Virus record (IMG/VR): IMGVR_UViG_2799112330_000002
Coordinates: 96,001 to 160,000 of that record
Direction: 5' to 3' (one strand)
DNA from: a virus
Lineage: Duplodnaviria; Heunggongvirae; Uroviricota; Caudoviricetes
DNA: 64,000 bases
Shown in pieces: positions 42,286 through 56,832 of the stretch (its first letter is position 1; each line of letters opens with the position of its first letter). Made by a program: the position numbers and the translations under genes. A model generated the notes under the pieces. It was not told the DNA's origin, ran no database searches, and saw only the letters and a list, made by a program, of their open reading frames with translations.

Positions 42286-43314
42286 ATGATTAATAATCAA
42301 TTATTGTATATTGGACTAAACGGTTTAGCAGGATCAGGGAAAGACACACTTGCAAAAATGCTTAATGTAATACTAATGAAAGATTGGAAAAACATTGATG
42401 AATGTAAAGAATTCTATGATAAATTCTATGTTCGTCCTAATGTTTCTGCAACATATTATGAAAAGACAAAAGAATATGACAATAAAGTAATATGTCTGGC
42501 TTTTGCTGATCAGTTAAAGACAATATGTTCTGATATCTTCGGTATTCCACTTAAATATTTCTATTTCAACAAATCAACCGCATGGGTATGTATCAACCAT
42601 AATTTTGAATATACGGAAATACGTCCTGATAATGTTGTTACCTGTGAAGACTATTTCTATAATATATCAGAATATAGTGAATCAGAAACAAAATATTGGA
42701 TGTCATTACGTGATGTACTTGTCTATATAGGAACATATGTATTGCAATCCGAAGTCAATAAGAATGTATTTGTCAATATTGTCTCAAACAAGATAAACAA
42801 TCTTTTATTGAAGAATCATAGTTTGTCTTATGCTATCATAACAGATGTAAGATTCACTCATGAGATTGAATTCATCAGAAAGAATAACGGAATAACAATC
42901 AAGATAATCAGGGATAGTGTTGTTCCTTTGTCAAATATTGCAGAGCATGATCTTGATGATGAAGACAGATATGATTATGTAATCTACAATAATGATACCT
43001 ATGATGACTTGTTCAATCAGGTATGGGATATTGTCCATAGTAACAAAGAGTTTGAAAATGATGTTGTAGATATGACAACCAGAGAAAATATCAACAACTA
43101 TTTGAGAAAGATTGATGAAGATGAATATCAGGTTTGTTCTCCCTATGGTATACAACAAATTGGTCATGAAAATGGAGAGATATCAATGATAGACCTAAAG
43201 GGCGGTCCAACAATTTATATAGATCAAGAGATACCCGGTACATCTATCATACCATATAGTATTGTTATGGATGAAAATACAAGTAAGTTCATAATAAAAG
43301 GGAATAGCGATTAA
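42286..43314 (+). CDS. Deoxynucleoside monophosphate kinase (T4 gp1-like)
   Basis: IGLNGLAGSGKDT, AFADQLK, R..L..IGT, IITDVRF.HE, H..E..LD. Confidence 0.85.
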   Translation: MINNQLLYIGLNGLAGSGKDTLAKMLNVILMKDWKNIDECKEFYDKFYVRPNVSATYYEKTKEYDNKVICLAFADQLKTICSDIFGIPLKYFYFNKSTAWVCINHNFEYTEIRPDNVVTCEDYFYNISEYSESETKYWMSLRDVLVYIGTYVLQSEVNKNVFVNIVSNKINNLLLKNHSLSYAIITDVRFTHEIEFIRKNNGITIKIIRDSVVPLSNIAEHDLDDEDRYDYVIYNNDTYDDLFNQVWDIVHSNKEFENDVVDMTTRENINNYLRKIDEDEYQVCSPYGIQQIGHENGEISMIDLKGGPTIYIDQEIPGTSIIPYSIVMDENTSKFIIKGNSD

Positions 43315-44508: not shown

Positions 44509-46152
44509 TTATTTTTGAATTCTAAGTTCAGAATATTCATCTTCAAGTAGATGCTTCTTAGCAGGATTTACAAGATATGCTAATTTGCTCATTAAGTCTC
44601 TATTCAACAATACCTTTTGTTTCTTCTTTCTATTGTCAACTAAAGCAAACTTAGCATTAAGGAGTTTTCTTGTTCCTATTTGGATGCATGGGATCTCTAC
44701 AACTGTTCTTTCTTCAGTCACTTGTCCAACAATAGCTTTAGATACATCTACTTTCTTGAAGTTATATTCTTTTCCTTCAATTGTTGCAATGACATCATCA
44801 CCTTGTATAGATATCTTCTCACAGCCAATTGTTGATGCCTTTGCTCCATTTCCAGTATCAAATTTTGCTTCAAATGTTATCTCTTCTTCATTTTCCATTG
44901 TGAATGTAATGTCTTCAAGATATCCAACTGATTTTGGTGACAATACTAATTCATTTATGTCATTTATATTGTCTAATAATATTTTGCAGAAATTTTCATC
45001 AATTACATCACTTATACCTTCCGTACCAGGAGAAGCATTGAATTCAAGAACAACGTTGTCACCAATTTCTGGATTTGATCCCTTGACAAGTGGCATGATG
45101 TCAACAGCACACCAAGGCATTCCAGATATCTTTGCTACTTTAAGAGCTATCTCTTCTTGTTCTTTAGTCAATTCAACCTTTTCAGCAACAGCACCTAAAG
45201 AGACATTTGAACGGAAGTCACCACCAATCTTCTTACGTTTCATCTGAGCAAGAATCTTCTGTTTTGTTCTCATTGTCAATACATGTACTCTTATGTCACC
45301 ACCATCTGCTTCTTCTTTCTTCTGTACTAATAGTTCTCTTTCTTCATCAATAGCAAATATAGCTTGAAGGATTGAAAGAATAGTCTTGCCGTTTACCATG
45401 AATACACCAGTACCACCATGACCATCCAGGATCTTTACAACATATTCATATTTTTCAGATTCATCAGAATTCTGATCTTTATATATGTCTTTCAATTTCT
45501 TCTTAAGACTATCCATTCCGTCCTTTATGTCATTCTTAGATACTAATGTGAACTTTGGTTGTGGTATCTCATATCTTTCCATTAATACTGCGGACTGGTA
45601 TTTGTTGCATGCCTTCTTCAATGACTGAGCAGGATTGATTACAAATATACCCCAGTTCTGGATTTCTTTTATACATTCCATACATTCTTCAGACTCTTGA
45701 GCTCCAAGACGAACAATAGCAATAGTATCAATATTTGACTGATGATCAATAGTATACTTAAGCTTATCATCCCATATATCTATCTTGTCATCAGTTGCTT
45801 TATAGTTAAGCTGTTCTGCTACAAATATTTCTAGTTTGATGTCTTTTCCCTTTATAGCATCTTCCAAGTTCTTTAATGTCTTGTTCTTAGATGCATCTCT
45901 TTCATTAGTGAAGAACAATATATTTTTAAAGAAATATTCTTTGTTAGCTCCTAATGGGTCCTTTTCTGATGGTTCTATATCTAACTCATTTGTAGCTGAT
46001 TTGTCTTCTTGTGATTCACCAGGTTCTTCAAGATCTACTGGATCAATAGCAGAATCATCTTTTGGCAATAAGTCATCATCTGCTTCTAAGACTCTATTTA
46101 TGTCATTCAAATTAGTCAGATAAGTATGTAAATGTTCTTTAAACTTTTTCAT
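44509..46152 (-). CDS. RimK-like ATP-grasp ligase fused to a C-terminal retropepsin-like (RimB-type) protease
   Basis: VVKILDGHGGTGV, DIRVHV, DFRSNVSLGA, VLEFNASPG; AKFDTGNGA, VLLNRD. Confidence 0.85.
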   Translation of the reverse strand: MKKFKEHLHTYLTNLNDINRVLEADDDLLPKDDSAIDPVDLEEPGESQEDKSATNELDIEPSEKDPLGANKEYFFKNILFFTNERDASKNKTLKNLEDAIKGKDIKLEIFVAEQLNYKATDDKIDIWDDKLKYTIDHQSNIDTIAIVRLGAQESEECMECIKEIQNWGIFVINPAQSLKKACNKYQSAVLMERYEIPQPKFTLVSKNDIKDGMDSLKKKLKDIYKDQNSDESEKYEYVVKILDGHGGTGVFMVNGKTILSILQAIFAIDEERELLVQKKEEADGGDIRVHVLTMRTKQKILAQMKRKKIGGDFRSNVSLGAVAEKVELTKEQEEIALKVAKISGMPWCAVDIMPLVKGSNPEIGDNVVLEFNASPGTEGISDVIDENFCKILLDNINDINELVLSPKSVGYLEDITFTMENEEEITFEAKFDTGNGAKASTIGCEKISIQGDDVIATIEGKEYNFKKVDVSKAIVGQVTEERTVVEIPCIQIGTRKLLNAKFALVDNRKKKQKVLLNRDLMSKLAYLVNPAKKHLLEDEYSELRIQK

Positions 46153-46290: not shown

Positions 46291-46851
46291 ATGAAGTTAA
46301 TAATTATAGAGGGAACAGACAATGTTGGAAAAGATACACTTATTTCAAGAATTATGGAAAACTACGATGTAATGACACTCATTCATTGTGGTAAGCCAAA
46401 GTCAAAAGATCATCCAAATGAATCACAGGACAGTTTATTCAATTTCTATATAAAAAGTATAATAAACAAGAAATATAATAATTCAGATGTCATTATTATG
46501 AACAGATCTCATATAGGTGAAGCAGTCTATGGAGTATTATATAGGAATAGGGACATAAATGAAGTATTGAAGAAGATTCATGATTGGAATGTTGAGCTTA
46601 TGAAATGTCCAGACCTTGAAGTAAAGTATATACAATTATTAAGTACATCCGAAAGACTATTGAAGAACAATGAAGATGGACAGTCATTATCAAAGGGAAA
46701 TAGTTCTAATATAATAAAAGAAACAGCATTGTTTACAGAAGCATATGTAAAGTCATTTTTAGACAAGAAACTTATATATGTAGATGATAATGGAGAATTC
46801 AGGACAAAAGAAGATATATTTGATGAAGCATGGGATTTCATTAATAAATAA
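46291..46851 (+). CDS. Thymidylate-kinase-like (modified dNMP) kinase
   Basis: IIIEGTDNVGKDT P-loop; NRSHIGEAVYG. Confidence 0.75.
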   Translation: MKLIIIEGTDNVGKDTLISRIMENYDVMTLIHCGKPKSKDHPNESQDSLFNFYIKSIINKKYNNSDVIIMNRSHIGEAVYGVLYRNRDINEVLKKIHDWNVELMKCPDLEVKYIQLLSTSERLLKNNEDGQSLSKGNSSNIIKETALFTEAYVKSFLDKKLIYVDDNGEFRTKEDIFDEAWDFINK

Positions 46852-46875
46852 AAAGATATTAGATAAGAAGATATT

Positions 46876-47580
46876 ATGATTAAGACAGAAGATATATTGA
46901 AACAGTTCAAAGAAAAGTATGATAATAAAGATTTTAGAATAATTGGCAATAATGTACAGCAAGCAAAGACAATTGAGTTACAGAATGTACAGTTTGAAGT
47001 AGATAAGCCATGGATAGTAAGAGAACCAAACTATGATTATTTCAATAGAGAGCTTGAATGGTATAAGTCAGAATCATTGAATGTGAATGATATCCCAGAA
47101 GGTGCTCCAACAATGTGGAAGTCTTGTGCAACACCAATAGGATATATTAATTCAAATTATGGGTGGATGATCTGGTCTAAAGACAACTATAATCAATTTG
47201 ATCATTGTCTACAAAAACTAATTGAGGATCCACATACAAGAGAGGCATGTATGATATATAATAGACCATCAATGCAGGAAGACTATAATAAATTTGGCAT
47301 GCATGATTTTTGTTGTACATATTCTGTTCAATGTTTCATAAATGAAGACAAAGAAGGAAAGAAGCATCTAAAATATATTGTATATATGAGAAGTAATGAT
47401 GCAGTATTTGGATTTGATAATGATGCATTATGGCATAAGTATGTTCAGCAAATGCTAAGGAATAGACTTAGTGAACATTTTAATGAAGAATTCATAGCAG
47501 ACAATATTATATGGAATGCAGGATCATTACATATTTATGAAAGACATTTCAAATATTTAGAGGATGGACAAAACGAGTGA
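46876..47580 (+). CDS. dCMP hydroxymethylase/hydroxylase-like (thymidylate synthase fold, T4 gp42 type)
   Basis: INSNYGW, IYNRPSM, DFCCT, MRSNDAVFGFDND (cytosine-specifying Asp as in gp42 MRSNDVVFGFRND), GSLHIYERHF. Confidence 0.85.
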   Translation: MIKTEDILKQFKEKYDNKDFRIIGNNVQQAKTIELQNVQFEVDKPWIVREPNYDYFNRELEWYKSESLNVNDIPEGAPTMWKSCATPIGYINSNYGWMIWSKDNYNQFDHCLQKLIEDPHTREACMIYNRPSMQEDYNKFGMHDFCCTYSVQCFINEDKEGKKHLKYIVYMRSNDAVFGFDNDALWHKYVQQMLRNRLSEHFNEEFIADNIIWNAGSLHIYERHFKYLEDGQNE

Positions 47581-48154
47581 CATAAAGAGAAAGTTGTTAG
47601 ATGAGCTTAAAGCTAATAATGTAAAAGATTGCGGATATAATTGCCAAAGTGGAAGAAGATATGTAGAAGTAAAGAATGCATTGTTTGAAGTTAACAAAGA
47701 TCGTATTTTTGAAAACATTCCTAAATTGTCTTATATGGATGATTCTTGGTATGTAGCAAATTATGAGCCTTTGCTAGAAAGGAATGATCAATATAATAAA
47801 TGCATTAATAAGTTGATTGAGAATCCAGCATCACGTCAAGCAGTTCTCATATTAGTAGATCCTAAAGAATATGACAATGAAGACAAAACATTCATATGTA
47901 CAATGTATATGCATATCTTTCTCAATCATATAGAAGAAAATAAATATGAATTGGAATATATTGTGCATATGAGGTCAAATGATGCTATAGAATTCATAAC
48001 CGATCATCAATGGCACCAGAAAATTTATTTTCGAATTTTTAATGAATTAATTGAGAAAACGAACTATATTATAATAAAGAAACCTATTGTTTGGAATGCA
48101 GATACTATTCATCTATATGAGCAGTTTTGGGATCAAGCAATAGACAATTATTAA
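47564..48154 (+). CDS. Second, divergent thymidylate-synthase-fold paralog
   Basis: NPASRQAV, FICT, MRSNDAIEFITD, WNADTIHLYE. Confidence 0.75.
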   Translation: MDKTSDIKRKLLDELKANNVKDCGYNCQSGRRYVEVKNALFEVNKDRIFENIPKLSYMDDSWYVANYEPLLERNDQYNKCINKLIENPASRQAVLILVDPKEYDNEDKTFICTMYMHIFLNHIEENKYELEYIVHMRSNDAIEFITDHQWHQKIYFRIFNELIEKTNYIIIKKPIVWNADTIHLYEQFWDQAIDNY

Positions 48155-48173
48155 CTTATAATATATATAGAGT

Positions 48174-48857
48174 ATGAAACATAAGATATCCGCATCAATA
48201 ATGTGTGTAGACAACCTATTAGATCTACAGTCAGAAATAAAGACATTAGAAGACATAGGTATTGACTATTTGCATTTGGATGCGATGGATGGGCATTTTG
48301 TAAATAATATTACATTTGGCCCAGATATTTTCAATGCTGTTCAAAAATGTTCTTCAATTCCTTGTGACTATCATCTTATGCTTGATAATCCATTACCATT
48401 CATACAAAGACTTGATCTTAACAATAATGATATTGTGACTATTCATGCTGAGATTGATTCACAAAGATTTGAAGAAGCATTTGAATATTTGAAGACATTA
48501 AAGAAAAGAGGAGTAAAGATAGGAGTAGCAATCAATCCGGGTACATCAATAGAATCATTGGTGAAATACTTGGATGATATTGATGTGATATTAGTCATGC
48601 TTATCAATCCTGGTTTTGCTGGTCAACCTATTATTGATGGAATATTACAAAAGCCTGTATATATCAGGAAATATCTAGATTCACTTAATCATAAGAAGAT
48701 AATGATATCTGTTGATGGTGGTGTATCAGTGGAAAGAGCAAAATATCTTTCAAAGAATGGTATAGACATGTTTGTTGGTGGTACTTCTGGTCTGTTCATA
48801 AAGAATAGTGATTTGAAAAAGAATGCAGAAATATTGAGAAAGAACATAAACAATTAA
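48174..48857 (+). CDS. Ribulose-phosphate 3-epimerase family, AlsE (D-allulose-6-P 3-epimerase)-like
   Basis: ISASIMC, HLDAMDGHFV, DYHLM, PGFAGQ, VDGG, FVGGTSGLF. Confidence 0.8.
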   Translation: MKHKISASIMCVDNLLDLQSEIKTLEDIGIDYLHLDAMDGHFVNNITFGPDIFNAVQKCSSIPCDYHLMLDNPLPFIQRLDLNNNDIVTIHAEIDSQRFEEAFEYLKTLKKRGVKIGVAINPGTSIESLVKYLDDIDVILVMLINPGFAGQPIIDGILQKPVYIRKYLDSLNHKKIMISVDGGVSVERAKYLSKNGIDMFVGGTSGLFIKNSDLKKNAEILRKNINN

Positions 48858-48891
48858 GACATAAATAAAACATAATAATTAGATAATATAT

Positions 48892-50553
48892 ATGAAAGTT
48901 TTTATTACAACATCTGGAATTGGATCAAGACTATTAGAGCTTACAAAATATACTAATAAGTCAATGATCAAAATAGGCAAGAAACCTGTTATATCTTATA
49001 TTATTGATGAATATCCTGAAGATACAGAGTTTGTCATTTCTCTTGGATATTTTGGTGATCACATCAAACAATATCTTGAGTTAGCATATCCTGACAAGAA
49101 GATTACATTTGTAAATGTTGATAACTATGCTGGTCCAGGATCATCTCAAGTCTATTCACAATTACAAGCTGAACAATATCTTCAAGAGCCATTTATCTAT
49201 CATGATTGTGATACTATTGTTCAGAACCTTCAAGAGCAGATACCAATGGATTTCAAATATAATTTCTTAGTAGGTTATGAGACAAATTCAGAGTTATATG
49301 ATGCTTTTGATTATGATGTGAATACTAAGACAAATGACAAGTATGACTCATATAAGCTTATAAAGACATATATGAAGCCTGATTCATTAGTAGGTATGCT
49401 TTCATTCATTGGTATTTGTGGTATATATGACTATAAGACATTCTGGAAATATATGCATAAAGCTTATGAGAATGAGACAGTTCCCTATGACTTCTTGGTC
49501 TATCACAAATATGGAATGTTCAAAAACAGTCTTAGAGCAATAAAAGTTGATAACTGGACAGATACTGGAAATATTGCTGGTGTAAAGAATGCAAGAAAGA
49601 TGTTCAAGGATCAGTTCTCAATATTAGACAAGAATGATCAGGCTATCTTCATCATAAAAGACAAGGTAATCAAGTTCTTTGCTAAAGATGGAGTAGTAGA
49701 CAATCTCCTTGTTCATTATAATGCTATAAAAGAATTCTGTCAGCCAATAACTCAGAAGACAAAGAACTTTATGTGCTATGACTATATTGATGCAGAGAAT
49801 GCTATAGACAAAATGAATCCTGTAAGATTTGAGTCATTTATGAACACACTTAAGGATTCAGGTTTCTGGGACAACAAGGAATGGATTGACAAAGAATTGT
49901 TCTTTACATGTATGCATAATTTCTATCTTAACAAGAACATACAACGTGTCAATCAGTTCAAGGAATTCTATCAGGTTACAGAAGACAAAGACATCTATGT
50001 GAATGACATTCTTATTCCAAAAGAATGGACTATTGAAAGGATGCTTAATGAGATGACAAAACTTGATGAATGGAAGAATAGTGTACCTTCTGGATGGCAT
50101 GGTGATTTTGTATTAGACAATATATTATATGATAGTAAGAATGAAAAATATATATTGTTAGACTGGAGACCTAACTTTGGGGAAATCATAGAATACGGAG
50201 ATAAAAACTATGACTTTGGAAAGATGAATCATAACATCACATTCAATTTCAATAGTGCTTATAATGATTTGTTCTCCATTGATGAATCCGATCCAGATAA
50301 TATCTATATTAATATATTATGCAACAATTATGTCTATGAATGCAAAGAGGTATTAAGAAAATTTGTAGAAGAAAACTATAATGTAAGATTCCCTTATATT
50401 GAAATGATTACTGGAGCATGTTGGGTAAGTATGTCACCATTGTATTTCCTCAATCCAGTATCAAAGTTCTTGTTCTATATGGGTAAACTTACTCTTTATG
50501 TAAACTTAATGAAATTACTTGGAAATAAGATAACAACAAAATTTGACAAATAA
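48892..50553 (+). CDS. Sugar-phosphate nucleotidyltransferase fused to an APH/choline-kinase-like domain
   Basis: SGIGSRL..LTK..NK, HDCD, WTDTG; HGDFVLDNIL and LLDWR. Confidence 0.8.
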   Translation: MKVFITTSGIGSRLLELTKYTNKSMIKIGKKPVISYIIDEYPEDTEFVISLGYFGDHIKQYLELAYPDKKITFVNVDNYAGPGSSQVYSQLQAEQYLQEPFIYHDCDTIVQNLQEQIPMDFKYNFLVGYETNSELYDAFDYDVNTKTNDKYDSYKLIKTYMKPDSLVGMLSFIGICGIYDYKTFWKYMHKAYENETVPYDFLVYHKYGMFKNSLRAIKVDNWTDTGNIAGVKNARKMFKDQFSILDKNDQAIFIIKDKVIKFFAKDGVVDNLLVHYNAIKEFCQPITQKTKNFMCYDYIDAENAIDKMNPVRFESFMNTLKDSGFWDNKEWIDKELFFTCMHNFYLNKNIQRVNQFKEFYQVTEDKDIYVNDILIPKEWTIERMLNEMTKLDEWKNSVPSGWHGDFVLDNILYDSKNEKYILLDWRPNFGEIIEYGDKNYDFGKMNHNITFNFNSAYNDLFSIDESDPDNIYINILCNNYVYECKEVLRKFVEENYNVRFPYIEMITGACWVSMSPLYFLNPVSKFLFYMGKLTLYVNLMKLLGNKITTKFDK

Positions 50554-50556
50554 GAT

Positions 50557-51471
50557 ATGAAGATAGCCGGAATTACAGTTGCTTACAATGAAGGTAATAT
50601 GGTGAAATATGTAATGCCATATTATGAGAAAATGGGTATTGATAAATTGATAGTCTATGACAATATGTCTACTGATGACATGTGTGAAAAACTTTCTAAA
50701 TATCCATTTGTGGAGATTCGTCATTTTGATACTAATGGGAAGTTTGATGACAGAAAGAATTCTGATCTCAAGGAAGAAGTGTCTTATGAATTACTTCAAG
50801 AAGGATATGATTGGGTATATACTGGAGACTTTGATGAAATAGTCTATTGTGAAGGTGATTTCAAGAAGGAACTTGAGAAAATTGAGGAATTAGGTGGAAC
50901 AGTACTTTGTAGAGACATGATCCAGCCATTCAATCCATTGCCTTATGACTTTGATGAGACAAAACTTATTCATGAACAATGTACTCATTTCCTTACATGG
51001 CATGACTGGTCAAGTACATGGGGTGGATCAAAGGTATTGTTGAGAAGTAAGAAAGTACCGAAGATAAAGTTGTCATTAGGTGCCCATGGAACAGGATTTC
51101 CAAAGAAGGGTATTGAGACAGATCCAGTATTGTTTGGCTATCCTTTCATCACATTCCATCTCAAATATGTTGACTTTACTGCATTAGAGCATAATTCTCA
51201 CGAAAAGCATGCAAGAATACAATGGAGATTAGATGTCCCAACATGTACAGCAGTAGATGCATCATTTACAAAACGTCTTTATTCTCGTACAATGGGTGAT
51301 GCTGGTATAAAGAATACTATAGATAAATTAATGAAGAAGACAAGTAAACTTAATATTGCTCCTGGTTGGGAATCATTCAAGGAATACTATGATAAAAACT
51401 ATAAGATGAATATGACTAAATTTAAAAATATTAAACACGTAAAAAGATTAGATTATGAACAGAACAGCTGA
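50557..51471 (+). CDS. GT-A (GT2-like) glycosyltransferase
   Basis: AYNE, IVYDNMSTD, WVYTGDFDE, HLKY. Confidence 0.8.
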   Translation: MKIAGITVAYNEGNMVKYVMPYYEKMGIDKLIVYDNMSTDDMCEKLSKYPFVEIRHFDTNGKFDDRKNSDLKEEVSYELLQEGYDWVYTGDFDEIVYCEGDFKKELEKIEELGGTVLCRDMIQPFNPLPYDFDETKLIHEQCTHFLTWHDWSSTWGGSKVLLRSKKVPKIKLSLGAHGTGFPKKGIETDPVLFGYPFITFHLKYVDFTALEHNSHEKHARIQWRLDVPTCTAVDASFTKRLYSRTMGDAGIKNTIDKLMKKTSKLNIAPGWESFKEYYDKNYKMNMTKFKNIKHVKRLDYEQNS

Positions 51472-52801
51472 AAAGAACATTTTGATCGGAAAAATTGGAA
51501 AATCAATTAAATTCAAGAACTTAGACATTAGAACGGGTGGTGATGCATGCATGATATTCTATTCATCAATTGCAAGAATGAATCCTGAATATAACTTCTA
51601 TTGGATTGGCCCAAACCAGATGAACAAGCTTAGTCAGGAGGAGTATGACTATATATTCCCTAACCATAACGTATTCTCTGCTTATGGATCAGATTATGAC
51701 AACCCTAATGCACATCCATTCCAGCCAATATTGGATTATTTCAAAAATAATGACATAAAGATTGACTTCGCTTTGCTTATGTCTGGAATGTGCTCAGGTC
51801 TCAATGTACCGAATTTCATGAAGAGTAAGAAGACTGGTGAATATGCTAAGATCTTGAATGCATTCAAAAACTATGTTGGTCCCTATATCTGGACACTTAA
51901 TGAAACAAATGTGCCTTTCTATCTTATTTCAGAGGATGCAAGATATATTACAACAAATGCTACTGATCTCTGTAACAGGGAAAGACTTATCTTTACACAA
52001 ACAAATGGTTATTTCAATCCTATTCCCCATATCACATCATTGACAGACTTCACATTGAAAGAAGATAGCTCAATCAAATGTATCTATGGATATGTTGAGA
52101 GAATATTTATGATGGGTCTTAGTCATGACTGGAAAGAGAAGATTGATATTGACAGGAAACTTCATTCTACTGGAAACAGACTTATTGTTATCTCAAATGG
52201 ATGTGGTCAGAAAGATATCAATAGAGCAAATGGCGGAAAGGGTTCAAGACTTCCTGAATACAAGAAATATATCATTGACAATCTTAAGAATACCGAATAT
52301 TCTGGTACAAAGATCTATGGACAGTGGGATGACAAGACATATGCTAAATATCCTGATACTGTCATTGACAAGCCACTTGTAGAACTTGAAGATGAAGTAG
52401 CAGATGCTCGTTATTCATTAGTATATTCTATCATGCCTGGGTTTGTTACTGTAAAAGCTTGGGAAATGATCATCAAGGGTCTTATCCCATTTATCCATCC
52501 CGATTATGACAAAGACAGACTTCTTGGACTTCCTGAATATTGTTATCTTAAGGATGAGAAAGACTTGTTGATAAAGATGAGAGAACTTGATGCTCATGAT
52601 GAATTATATCTACGCTTATTGAATAATTGCTTTAATTGCATATCAGAAGATGATCTCAATGGTAAGCGAATGAACAATTTCATATTCAACAAGATTGCAG
52701 AAGATCTGGGATTTGAGTATAAAGAGAAAGAAGGATGTGAATCTATTTTTGATCATTTCTCAAAGACTGTATTTGATCCTTCAAAAGTTATAAATAAATA
52801 G
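51455..52801 (+). CDS. GT-B-fold (beta-glucosyltransferase-like) putative DNA glycosyltransferase
   Basis: IGKIG...GGD N-terminus, EDAR, IYGQW, T.KAWEMI..GLIPF.HPDYD; position in the modification operon. Confidence 0.6.
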   Translation: MNRTAEKNILIGKIGKSIKFKNLDIRTGGDACMIFYSSIARMNPEYNFYWIGPNQMNKLSQEEYDYIFPNHNVFSAYGSDYDNPNAHPFQPILDYFKNNDIKIDFALLMSGMCSGLNVPNFMKSKKTGEYAKILNAFKNYVGPYIWTLNETNVPFYLISEDARYITTNATDLCNRERLIFTQTNGYFNPIPHITSLTDFTLKEDSSIKCIYGYVERIFMMGLSHDWKEKIDIDRKLHSTGNRLIVISNGCGQKDINRANGGKGSRLPEYKKYIIDNLKNTEYSGTKIYGQWDDKTYAKYPDTVIDKPLVELEDEVADARYSLVYSIMPGFVTVKAWEMIIKGLIPFIHPDYDKDRLLGLPEYCYLKDEKDLLIKMRELDAHDELYLRLLNNCFNCISEDDLNGKRMNNFIFNKIAEDLGFEYKEKEGCESIFDHFSKTVFDPSKVINK

Positions 52802-52810
52802 ACAATATAT

Positions 52811-53302
52811 ATGAACAAGATAATTGTAATTAGCGATATTGATGGTTGCTTGACAGATGGAGGACTTTATTATACTGCTGATGGCAAAGTAATGAAGAAG
52901 TTTGGAGTTGGTGATCATGAAGGAGTAAAGCTTTTACGAAAGAACAATATAGATATCCTGTTTATCACTGCCGATAAGACAGGATATCCTATTGTCAAAC
53001 GTAGAATAGATGATATGAAATGTGATCTTGTTGTTGTAAATGAAATAGAACGATTAGACTTCATTAAAGAATATGTGAAAGAATATGAACAAGTGGTATT
53101 CTTTGGAGATGGTCTTGGGGATGCTAATGTGAAGAGCAAAATCCCAGAAATATATTTCATAACTCCAAGAAACGCCAGAAATGAAGCTAAATATGTTTCT
53201 GACTATATCACCGAAAACAAAGGTAGTGAAGGAGCTTTCTTAGATCTTGCTATACATGTTTCTTGGAAAACAAATACATATTATAATAAACTATATGAAT
53301 AG
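52811..53302 (+). CDS. KdsC-like HAD phosphatase
   Basis: SDIDGCLTDG.LYY..DG..MKKF...D..G, FFGDGLGD, KG..GAF. Confidence 0.85.
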   Translation: MNKIIVISDIDGCLTDGGLYYTADGKVMKKFGVGDHEGVKLLRKNNIDILFITADKTGYPIVKRRIDDMKCDLVVVNEIERLDFIKEYVKEYEQVVFFGDGLGDANVKSKIPEIYFITPRNARNEAKYVSDYITENKGSEGAFLDLAIHVSWKTNTYYNKLYE

Positions 53303-54587
53303 ACAAATAAGATGGGCAGCAATACAACCGCTTACTGGAGGTATGTATCTTGGGGCTGAAGAAGCTATAGGAAATAAAGCCGAATGGATCATGTCATTCA
53401 AAGGATTAGATACTGTCAAATATTCAAAGACTGATCCAACACAAATGACATCTGTTGGCAATGAATATAACCTATTGAAATATCTAGAAAAGAAAGGGAG
53501 ATCTGTACCCTATTATGTCATTAATAGTCCAATGTTTGATATTGACATAAACAGTACAAATGTTGACATTACTTTAGATGGTGACAAGGCAACTCCTGAT
53601 TATAATGATATTGACATAATTGTTGGTGTTCCTGTTTGTTCAGGTCTTTCAATGGTCACAAGTGGTAGTGAAGAGACAAAGAAGCAGAGAAACTGCAATA
53701 TGCAATGGATGGCTAATTATACATTACAAGTAATAAGGCCAAAGGTATATATATTTGAGAATGCTCCAACATTGATGACAGAACGTGGTGAGTATCTAAG
53801 AGAATGGTTTAATGAATTAGCATCTTTGAATGGTTATTCTATTCTCTATTATAAGACAGATACTATTCTTCATAACAATCCGCAAAAACGTCCTCGTACA
53901 TTTGTCATTTTTGTAAAGCATAACAAGTATGAGGCACAACAAGATCCACCATTGTTTGATTGGGAAAAGAAACCTATATCATTAGAAGATTTTTTGAACA
54001 ATATACCAGAAGGACTTGAGCAAGATGTTCCTGTATCAACAAGCCCAAATAACTTCTATTTGAAAGACTTTATGAATGAAGAATATAATAATGACTGGAA
54101 GAAACTTATCAATGGATCCGTCATGAACTTCATCATCAAAGAAAAGAAATTAGACAAGTTGATTAAGCATACTGAAAATAATGACAAATATGGAGATGAG
54201 AACAAGGAGAAGACATTGAAATATTTCAATCATATTAAGAAGAAGAAAGAAATGGGATTGAATTTCTATGGTAATGATCTTGTATATTTCAAAGACAAAC
54301 TTCCTTCTGTTCAATTTAGAGCAATCCCTAATATGGTACATATAACAAAGGACAGAATATATACTATAAGAGAATATCTTACATTTATGGGAATGCCTTA
54401 TGACTTTATCTTATATGGAGACAAGTCTAATCTTCCAAAGATCGCTCAGAATGTTCCAGTAGGTACAGCAAAATTCATAGTTGAACAAGCAGTAAAGATC
54501 ATTGAGAACTGGGGACAAGAAAGAACAACAAATCATAATGCGTTATATCAAAACAATATAGAACAAAAGACAAGAAACGGGGATTAA
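53295..54587 (+). CDS. C5-cytosine DNA methyltransferase-like protein with atypical motif I
   Basis: PVCSGLS (motif IV), FENAP (VI), PQKRPRTF (VIII), IAQNVP (X); motif I reads IQPLTGG instead of FxGxGG. Confidence 0.75.
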   Translation: MNRQIRWAAIQPLTGGMYLGAEEAIGNKAEWIMSFKGLDTVKYSKTDPTQMTSVGNEYNLLKYLEKKGRSVPYYVINSPMFDIDINSTNVDITLDGDKATPDYNDIDIIVGVPVCSGLSMVTSGSEETKKQRNCNMQWMANYTLQVIRPKVYIFENAPTLMTERGEYLREWFNELASLNGYSILYYKTDTILHNNPQKRPRTFVIFVKHNKYEAQQDPPLFDWEKKPISLEDFLNNIPEGLEQDVPVSTSPNNFYLKDFMNEEYNNDWKKLINGSVMNFIIKEKKLDKLIKHTENNDKYGDENKEKTLKYFNHIKKKKEMGLNFYGNDLVYFKDKLPSVQFRAIPNMVHITKDRIYTIREYLTFMGMPYDFILYGDKSNLPKIAQNVPVGTAKFIVEQAVKIIENWGQERTTNHNALYQNNIEQKTRNGD

Positions 54588-54604
54588 TTTCCCTGTTTTT
54601 TTTT
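54574..54604 (+). terminator. Terminator of the modification operon
   Basis: aaacgggga-ttaatt-tccctgttt plus long T-run. Confidence 0.65.
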
Positions 54605-55707: not shown

Positions 55708-56760
55708 ATGAAGAAGTTTATTTTAAGTTTGATGCTGATGTTCAGCATGGTAATGGGTGTTTCCGCTCAGACCGCTATTGAGACACCCAAGTTTTTTGAC
55801 AATTGGTATGTTGGTGTAAATGCCGGCGCTACCACTAATTTAGAGTTCAATAAGGTTTTCCCAGTAAATGCAACTGTTGGTGCAGTACTTGGAAAAGAGT
55901 TTACTCCTGTATTTGGTGCACAGATTGAAGGTGTAACATGGCTTGGTGATGCTAATTTTGCTAATTCACATACTGCTTTCAAAGCAATTGATCTTTGTGT
56001 AAATGGAACAGTTAATTTTAGTAACTTGTTCTTTGGATATCTTGGAACACCTCGTAAGTTTGAAGTAAGTGGTGTAGCTGGTATCGGTTGGCTTCATATC
56101 TATGGTGACCACAATCTTGATGGCACTTATGGTCATGAAGACAATGATGAGTTTATAGCAAAGACTGCCGTAAATCTTGCTTGGAATCTTGGTAAGACAA
56201 GATCACATCAGTTATATGTACAGCCAGGTATCTATTGGAACTTGACAAATGGTCCTCGTGATTATGTACATTTCAATAGTAAGCATGCACAGGTTGGTGT
56301 ATCTGTTGGTTATGTCTACAAATTCAAGACAAGCAATGGAACACATAATTTCAAGACTTATGATGTAGGCATGATGCAGGATGAAATTTCAAGATTGAAT
56401 GATGCTCTTGCAGCTTGTGAGAATCGTCCTCCACGCGAAGTTACAAAGGAAGTTGCCGTAAGGGTTCCTGTACCTGCATTTGAGGTAATTGAGTTTGAGC
56501 TTGGTTCTTATGAATTGTTAGATGAGGCAAAGGCTAAGCTTGATAAGATTGATGAGCGAATGACTGTAGAAATTACAGCTACAGCTTCTCCTGATGGAAA
56601 AGAACAATTTAATAAAGAGTTGTCAGACAAACGTGCTCAGGCAGTAGCAGACTATCTTAAGGGTAGAGGAGTTACTGTAAAGAGTGCCGAAGGTCAGGGA
56701 GTCAAGTTGAACAGATTAGCTATAGTTACATTTGTTCGTCCTGAAAGACCACGTAGATAA
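55708..56760 (+). CDS. Bacteroidales-type OmpA family outer membrane protein
   Basis: Signal peptide (VSA/Q), FFDNWYVG beta-barrel, GKEFTPVFG, coiled linker, ASPDG..FN..LSDKRAQAV peptidoglycan-binding domain. Confidence 0.85.
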   Translation: MKKFILSLMLMFSMVMGVSAQTAIETPKFFDNWYVGVNAGATTNLEFNKVFPVNATVGAVLGKEFTPVFGAQIEGVTWLGDANFANSHTAFKAIDLCVNGTVNFSNLFFGYLGTPRKFEVSGVAGIGWLHIYGDHNLDGTYGHEDNDEFIAKTAVNLAWNLGKTRSHQLYVQPGIYWNLTNGPRDYVHFNSKHAQVGVSVGYVYKFKTSNGTHNFKTYDVGMMQDEISRLNDALAACENRPPREVTKEVAVRVPVPAFEVIEFELGSYELLDEAKAKLDKIDERMTVEITATASPDGKEQFNKELSDKRAQAVADYLKGRGVTVKSAEGQGVKLNRLAIVTFVRPERPRR

Positions 56761-56802: not shown

Positions 56803-56832
56803 AAAGAGTAGGATAACGTTATCCTACTCTTT
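56803..56832. terminator. Bidirectional terminator (perfect palindrome)
   Basis: aaagagtaggataacgttatcctactcttt. Confidence 0.75.

Follow-up and report, generated by a model that had tools for sequence, protein, structure and literature searches.

Camouflage of phage DNA by sugars is a known strategy. T-even phages glucosylate 5-hydroxymethylcytosine (hmC) with host UDP-glucose, using a gp42-type hydroxymethylase, a gp1-type deoxynucleoside monophosphate (dNMP) kinase, the dCTPase gp56 and the glucosyltransferase BGT. RB69, HY126 and DLP3 carry arabinosyl-5-hydroxycytosine and make their own donor; in HY126, AfhE phosphorylates arabinose-5-phosphate at C1, AfhF strips the 5-phosphate and the N-domain of AfhE makes UDP-arabinose (PMC13326640). 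Phage-made donors serving BGT-like enzymes, and many sugars on hmC, have already been published (10.1101/2023.12.21.572611; PMC13326640), and ThyS-linked clusters of GT-B glycosyltransferases with epimerases and APH kinases have been noted in metagenomes (Pyle et al., 10.1101/2023.12.21.572611). Here we describe an operon of nine plus-strand open reading frames at positions 46291-54587 of a 64,000-nucleotide stretch of a Caudoviricetes virus (IMG/VR record IMGVR_UViG_2799112330_000002, contig C82, positions 96001-160000; this whole stretch is called the window, and coordinates refer to it unless preceded by C82 or a locus number, L). On balance, the operon probably specifies the pre-replicative formation of hmC and its post-replicative glycosylation in a 410-kb rumen jumbo phage, with a home-made rare hexose. 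The system resembles T4 in its base and transferase and RB69/HY126 in its donor, and belongs to neither group.

The base is indicated by the first of two thymidylate synthase (TS)-fold genes, both of which match PF00303 (E 1e-13 and 5e-6). TS1 (46876..47580, +) is a close homologue of T4 gp42 (1b49; phmmer E 4e-61), and in E. coli ThyA numbering the alignment shows Asp in place of L143, the catalytic Cys146, a retained D169 and Asp in place of N177, which is the full set of T-even residues. D177 selects dCMP, an acidic residue 143 accompanies hydroxymethylation and D169N marks hydroxylases (PMC13326640). Both TS1 and its paralogue TS2 read RSND where RB69 gp48 reads RSQN. By homology, then, TS1 is predicted to make hmdCMP; since it keeps D169 and is so close to gp42, hydroxycytosine is unlikely, and this base was dropped on the D169N test. 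Of the two bases that had been proposed from the sequence, hydroxymethyl- or hydroxycytosine, only the former has stood. A separate ThyX (C82:41112) supplies dTMP, so TS1 is not required for thymidine.

Two kinases could serve the modified nucleotide. A T4 gp1-type dNMP kinase, as in the T-even phages, lies outside the operon about 3 kb upstream (42286..43314, +; PF21448 E 4e-11, phrog_139 E 1e-35) and is the candidate hmdCMP kinase. The first gene of the operon, a core gene, encodes a thymidylate-kinase-like nucleotide kinase (46291..46851, +; phrog_761 E 1e-13), the positional analogue of RB69 gp45; such a kinase is also found upstream of TS in L004, L005, L015, L018 and phage 9183.

The transferase is a GT-B enzyme of 448 residues (51455..52801, +), which fold and family profile identify as a T4 BGT-like DNA glycosyltransferase. 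As a single sequence it gave no Pfam match, including none to the Pfam BGT family. Its structure model (pLDDT 93) returned BGT as all top five Foldseek matches and superposes on T4 BGT (1c3j) with a VIA Z of 21.7 (rmsd 3.6, 310 residues aligned), against 15.7 for T4 AGT and 14.2 for the HY126 glycosyltransferase. A search with the family profile picks up BGT at E 1e-7, and in its alignment D161 and R163 fall on D100 and R102 of BGT, D161 being invariant (72 of 72 distinct copies), so that the BGT fold and the catalytic Asp of the T-even enzyme are both present. Relatives of this GT-B number 293 at the 50% cluster level and, in the 128 loci examined, adjoin gp42-type TS genes and a sugar-activation module. 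Given the BGT-closest fold, the invariant D161 and this neighbourhood, DNA is very probably the acceptor. The likeness to the T-even system extends to the hydroxymethylase, the gp1-type kinase and the BGT fold; in contrast, the window enzyme is only 12-15% identical to BGT, gp56 was not found, and a TS paralogue and a methyltransferase-like partner are added. The donor would be phage-made instead of host UDP-glucose, and possession of a donor cassette argues against the latter as the source.

Cultured relatives of the transferase occur in Enterococcus phage 9183 (also TJE4 and Planchet; L001:6263-11215) and in Pseudoalteromonas phage XG4 (L002:100-6580), where TS, HAD, nucleotidyltransferase-kinase and BGT-like genes stand together with no epimerase or isomerase nearby. 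The DNA sugar of these four cultured phages is directly measurable.

The donor genes resemble those of RB69 and HY126. A nucleotidyltransferase-kinase fusion (48892..50553, +), a distant homologue of AfhE and RB69 gp52:53 with the make-up of an anomeric kinase and nucleoside diphosphate (NDP)-sugar pyrophosphorylase, has an N-terminal nucleotidyltransferase domain matching glucose-1-phosphate and phosphocholine cytidylyltransferases and a C-terminal APH-type kinase domain with HGDxxxxN at 403, the latter 24% identical to RB69 gp52 (hhalign E 3e-6). A KdsC/Kdn-9-phosphate phosphatase-like HAD protein (52811..53302, +; NF058599 E 5e-23 and TIGR01670 E 4e-21, both under cut-off) is predicted to remove the distal phosphate in the role of AfhF. 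Thus the pairing of fusion and HAD that marks the Afh systems is present, though in a distant subfamily, and because the kinase is homologous to RB69 gp52 we infer the AfhE/AfhF order of kinase, phosphatase and nucleotidyltransferase steps. The proposal of a phage-made sugar donor for cytosine hypermodification is supported by this parallel. A TMK-like gene beside TS is likewise shared with RB69, HY126 and DLP3 (PMC13326640). The window departs from them in its predicted base, in having a 3-epimerase and no arabinose-5-phosphate isomerase of the SIS family, in its fusion subfamily and KdsC-type HAD, and in a transferase that is BGT-like and not HY126-like.

Two further systems bear comparison. 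Contig 53 of Pyle et al., of subclass III (10.1101/2023.12.21.572611), is likened to the operon by its enzyme set, namely an APH-type kinase, a HAD, a nucleotidyltransferase and a BGT-like GT-B that place a non-glucose sugar on hmC; there, however, hmC comes from a methyltransferase and TET, the kinase is fused to the HAD and a sugar-phosphate epimerase is absent. The other is a bacterial cassette of SIS isomerase, epimerase, fusion and KdsC-like HAD in glycan loci of Patescibacteria and Bdellovibrionales, whose fusion is of a sister subfamily (32-40% identity) and in most copies adjoins the HAD. This cassette shares the epimerase type described below but carries an HxlB-like isomerase and serves surface glycans, whereas the window is without an isomerase.

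The epimerase gene encodes an AlsE-type ketose-phosphate 3-epimerase (48174..48857, +; PF00834 E 8e-50) with an SxMC motif, and its best match in the PDB is AlsE (3ct7; 130 bits, against 127 for Rpe). After strand 8 it has the phosphate loop that is one residue longer in AlsE, reading GTSGLF as AlsE does, where Rpe has GSAIF, and this AlsE-length loop is found in every phage epimerase of the cassette and in all 39 bacterial ones that were scored. Chan et al. in 2008, a study cited in PMC12216980, reportedly found that loop length sets the preference for hexuloses. On the strength of the loop, an AlsE-type enzyme in place of a housekeeping epimerase is supported. An epimerase tree was discarded as a test between AlsE and Rpe, as it placed the clade with neither and both references formed long branches.

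Fusion genes fall into two deep subfamilies, one of which includes phages 9183 and XG4 and lacks the epimerase, while in that of the window the companion is an Rpe-family 3-epimerase in some loci and a GatZ/KbaZ-like protein in others. The GatZ/KbaZ family has fructose-6-phosphate 4-epimerase activity (PMC11907403). This swap in sister loci points to fructose-6-phosphate as the entry point and, together with the AlsE-length loop, to the conversion of fructose-6-phosphate to allulose-6-phosphate as the predicted reaction, although hexulose specificity is less firmly indicated than the hmC product, the DNA acceptor or the order of the activation steps.

The following pathway can be proposed. TS1 would convert dCMP to hmdCMP, which phage kinases would raise towards the triphosphate for incorporation by the phage polymerase. 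In parallel, the epimerase would convert host fructose-6-phosphate to allulose-6-phosphate, and this would either be turned by a host isomerase into allose-6-phosphate or altrose-6-phosphate or be used directly as a ketose (psicose). The kinase domain would then phosphorylate the anomeric carbon, the HAD would take off the 6-phosphate, the nucleotidyltransferase would make the NDP-sugar and the BGT-like enzyme would move the sugar to hmC in DNA, where it would protect the phage DNA from host nucleases. The aldose or ketose nature of the sugar and the nucleotide that carries it are among the weaker parts of this scheme.

Beyond the window, the seven-gene core of the operon also turns up in L004, L005, L253 and L256, with the genes arranged in one of two orders. 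An isomerase is missing from the operon in the window, L004, L005, L010, L253 and L256; phage loci L018 and L129 carry both a SIS gene and an epimerase, and among GatZ-type viral loci, 22 of the 25 distinct ones have a PMI-like cupin. In bacteria, 41 of 44 epimerase loci encode an HxlB-like SIS protein, which scores far above GmhA; such counts are not phylogenetically independent, and two of the three SIS-less loci are cut by a contig end. The sequence-only reading had the epimerase taking the place of the isomerase, which in the light of these counts is not the norm. As an isomerase is usual in this cassette family, an aldose is suggested, and allose or altrose formed through a host isomerase is our tentative first choice for the sugar. 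RpiB is an allose-6-phosphate isomerase in E. coli and, as a host enzyme, would give allose; stereochemistry like that of arabinose-5-phosphate isomerase (API) would presumably give altrose.

A psicose activated directly is a possible but less favoured alternative. The window clade's fusion forms a well-supported branch of its own in the tree, the clade's epimerase groups with enzymes of Bacteroidales-type alditol operons and not with those of SIS cassettes, and the angustmycin route makes biosynthetic use of psicose (PMC8599513). That route (AgmD/AlsE, AgmC, AgmE) has in common with the operon a biosynthetic AlsE-type epimerase and a psicose unit destined for a nucleobase, but it proceeds by pyrophosphate activation and N-glycosidic transfer to free adenine, without an NDP-sugar or DNA. 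A fuller version, which we regard as doubtful, is that the clade lost its isomerase as the kinase came to phosphorylate C2 of the ketose, giving NDP-psicose and psicosyl-hmC, with the methyltransferase-fold partner carrying out a further non-standard reaction at C5. Of the psicose-derived sugar that had been envisaged, entry through allulose-6-phosphate is still predicted, whereas an aldose is at least as likely an outcome; the sugar is probably neither glucose nor arabinose.

Several observations weigh against a hexose made from allulose-6-phosphate and placed on hmC. tblastn and custom HMM searches gave no SIS/PF01380, RpiB, API or cupin match on C82, which may be an incomplete genome; matches from the isomerase search fell on other contigs of a bacterial bin in which C82 had been placed. 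On C82 there was also no match to gp56 (PF08761) or a MazG dCTPase and no dCMP deaminase was found, the sole dCTPase candidate being a trimeric dUTPase-like gene (C82:182824), for which reason complete replacement of cytosine is something that we infer and not an observation. Some C-containing palindromes are depleted on C82 (GGTACC, 20 against 64 expected). A heptose has been made in E. coli by a similar kinase-HAD-transferase-BGT set (10.1101/2023.12.21.572611). The epimerase scores about equally with the AlsE and Rpe models and is below both equivalog cut-offs (NF007266 AlsE, 181 against 271 bits; TIGR01163 Rpe, 184 against 213 bits), and its nearest bacterial relatives sit in IspD-dehydrogenase-LicD operons. 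AlsE and Rpe are said, again by Chan et al. in 2008, to be cross-promiscuous.

Palindrome avoidance as an indicator of modification gave a mixed picture and was set aside as uninformative; GTTAAC is likewise under-represented (48 against 89 expected), although modified cytosine should protect such sites. A dCMP deaminase stands beside TS in 63 of the 128 loci, in marine and freshwater T4-like relatives (L022-L134); C82 is without one and has ThyX.

The epimerase scores bear most directly on a pentose or pentulose, in which ribulose-5-phosphate would become xylulose-5-phosphate and then NDP-xylulose or NDP-xylose/lyxose (+132). Besides the slightly higher Rpe score, the only characterised homologous kinase takes a pentose phosphate, and sister bacterial epimerases adjoin IspD/TarI-like genes typical of CDP-pentitol routes. 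We nevertheless consider it unlikely, given that every member has the AlsE-length loop, that sister loci swap in a GatZ-like hexulose 4-epimerase, that the dehydrogenase next to the bacterial epimerase scores best to galactitol-1-phosphate dehydrogenase and that hosts already make xylulose-5-phosphate. Two bacterial operons (L012:8261-10675 and L257:5416-9628) combine an IspD/TarI-like cytidylyltransferase, a Zn dehydrogenase and an AlsE-length epimerase near LicD or a CDP-alcohol transferase, and possibly represent a CDP-hexitol route (allitol or altritol).

The donor might instead serve glycosylation of virion proteins or of the host surface, with hmC left bare or glucosylated from host UDP-glucose, given that the same cassette serves bacterial surface-glycan loci and glycan islands of other viruses and that C82 has separate glycosyltransferase clusters. 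In phages, however, TS and the BGT homologue flank the cassette, and the donor module keeps its place beside the GT-B even where its gene content differs, whereas glycan-island copies are without TS and GT-B; this explanation is therefore improbable. Viral glycan islands in L136-L179 hold a cupin, the nucleotidyltransferase-kinase, a GatZ-like protein and a HAD, with no TS or BGT, and a tagatose-6-phosphate-derived NDP-sugar route is predicted for them. On C82, a second glycosyltransferase cluster (C82:163645-171951; PF13704/PF01697, DUF5672, GT2) lies among structural genes and more likely serves virion glycosylation.

Swapping of modules beside the GT-B is seen in the close relatives L008, L015-L017 and L019, which replace the epimerase module by an SDR epimerase, a stand-alone APH kinase, extra nucleotidyltransferases and a TAGT-family GT-A (PF20691), often with two GT-B genes and no methyltransferase-like gene nearby; donor modules are freely swapped within this one phage group. 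L018 (L018:637-13066) has two nested modules in one phage, with two copies each of the methyltransferase-like, GT-B and fusion genes plus a SIS gene and an epimerase.

A heptose would arise if the epimerase acted on sedoheptulose-7-phosphate and a host GmhA-type isomerase gave an unusual heptose-7-phosphate (+192). The HAD-APH kinase, cytidylyltransferase and BGT-like transferase of contig 53 (Pyle et al.) gave mono- and di-heptosyl-hmC, this architecture is common among GT-B relatives, and the sequence of isomerase, kinase, phosphatase and transferase is that of NDP-heptose synthesis; the SIS partners of the cassette, however, are HxlB-like and score far above GmhA, which makes this outcome very unlikely. 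We know of no 3-epimerase for heptulose-7-phosphate, and this too counts against it. Equally remote is a product other than a simple glycosyl-hmC, reached either through activation at the distal phosphate (CDP-6-ketose or CDP-alditol) with sugar-phosphate transfer, for which CDP-6-glucitol in Campylobacter offers a precedent (PMC10918830) and the cytidylyltransferase-like N-domain speaks but which would make the fused kinase and HAD superfluous and ill suits BGT-like enzymes, as these take anomeric NDP-sugars, or through further decoration by the GT-A and the methyltransferase-like protein, the latter being tightly linked, altered in its cofactor loop and tied in fold with a carboxymethyltransferase but missing near the transferase in L008, L010, L015-L017 and L019.

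That last protein (53295..54587, +; PF00145 E 6e-21) has a C5-cytosine methyltransferase fold and keeps catalytic motifs IV (Cys), VI (EN) and VIII (QxRxR). Its S-adenosylmethionine motif I does not read FxGxG but PL[IT]GG throughout the family, and the acidic residue of motif II is Ser by alignment; homologues in the S-TIM5 group of cyanophages are annotated as methylases, including that of S-TIM54 with the same altered motif I, so that the window protein may still be active. The best folds are C5-methyltransferases (Z 24.4 to 3g7u and 22.9 to M.HaeIII), tied with the C5-carboxymethyltransferase 8yf3 (Z 23.4). Of 72 distinct GT-B copies, 52 have the gene close by; it remains in the operon when gene order changes, and its absence near the transferase in several close relatives indicates that it is not essential for glycosylation. 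On what we take as the likeliest reading, it would cap leftover unmodified cytosines at C5; alternatively it might act on hmC or use another cofactor. CpG depletion (0.34 on C82) was discarded as its footprint, having no link to the presence of the gene.

The other accessory genes are rarer. TS2 (47564..48154, +), a shortened paralogue that keeps the Cys, RSND and the D177 equivalent but by alignment is missing some 35 residues and has no acidic residue at 143, occurs only in the window, L005 and L008 among the GT-B loci compared; possible roles are those of a partner subunit or of an enzyme for another C5 product. The GT-A gene (50557..51471, +; PF13704 E 1e-12) is found among GT-B loci only in the window and L005 (53%), and a weak, distant paralogue lies at C82:163645 in the separate glycan cluster. 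It could possibly add a second sugar, as had been suggested, or act on an unrelated target; the narrow distribution and the paralogue make the former a weak proposal. Like that of the methyltransferase-like protein, these roles are assigned with less confidence than those of TS1 and the GT-B.

Within an incomplete coverage of the literature, we found neither a description of DNA carrying allose, altrose or psicose nor a relevant paper on allulose or psicose in phage DNA modification, so the sugar is probably undescribed. Any of the three on hmC would add to the sugars known from DNA; psicosyl-hmC, if true, would amount to a ketohexose glycoside in DNA made by an NDP-ketohexose route, of which we found no report. 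Such a sugar would also bear on the range of type IV restriction systems able to recognise rumen jumbo phages. Being compact and free of an isomerase, the operon also lends itself to tests of a widespread epimerase-kinase-phosphatase-nucleotidyltransferase cassette, and naming the product would annotate many bacterial and viral glycan loci. That many uncultured phages link a methyltransferase-like partner to BGT-like genes, although C5 should already be occupied, poses a mechanistic question.

C82 (410 kb, 29% GC, 32 tRNAs) carries a family B polymerase, ThyX, a helicase and an endolysin, and is by size, content and gene type a jumbo-phage contig; it was mis-binned with a 1.5-Mb bacterial metagenome-assembled genome and is not part of that chromosome. 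Near-identical DNA (about 96-98% identity) is present in independent bovine-gut metagenome assemblies from several studies, one contig covering 47881-53470, and the operon is therefore not an assembly artefact. Contig pieces over several genes were also found in one RNA run, which does not by itself show transcription. All nine genes are real: their co-oriented, tightly packed and partly overlapping arrangement (gaps of -17 to +34 nt) and the family assignments of the sequence-only reading were borne out, the latter by Pfam, PHROG, NCBIfam, fold and profile matches. For the last gene, alignment with homologues favours ATG 53295 over TTG 53247 as the probable start. An alternative genetic code was rejected, coding density being alike under tables 11, 15 and 4 and TAG serving as stop 24 times.

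The single terminator proposed at the operon end has a counterpart in a short hairpin (5 bp) with a T-run (54579..54593, +), a probable intrinsic terminator overlapping the stop of the last gene. Its position fits, but such sites are no more frequent in the region than in shuffled sequence (5 against 4.3 +/- 2.2), so that the call depends on position alone. Directly upstream of the operon, many relatives share with the window an oppositely oriented gene (44509-46152, -) for a fusion of a RimK-like ATP-grasp ligase with a protease-like domain. Downstream, a signal-peptide protein that is OmpA-like by eye (55708-56760, +), a possible hint of a Gram-negative host, is followed by a 13-bp bidirectional terminator hairpin (56803-56832).

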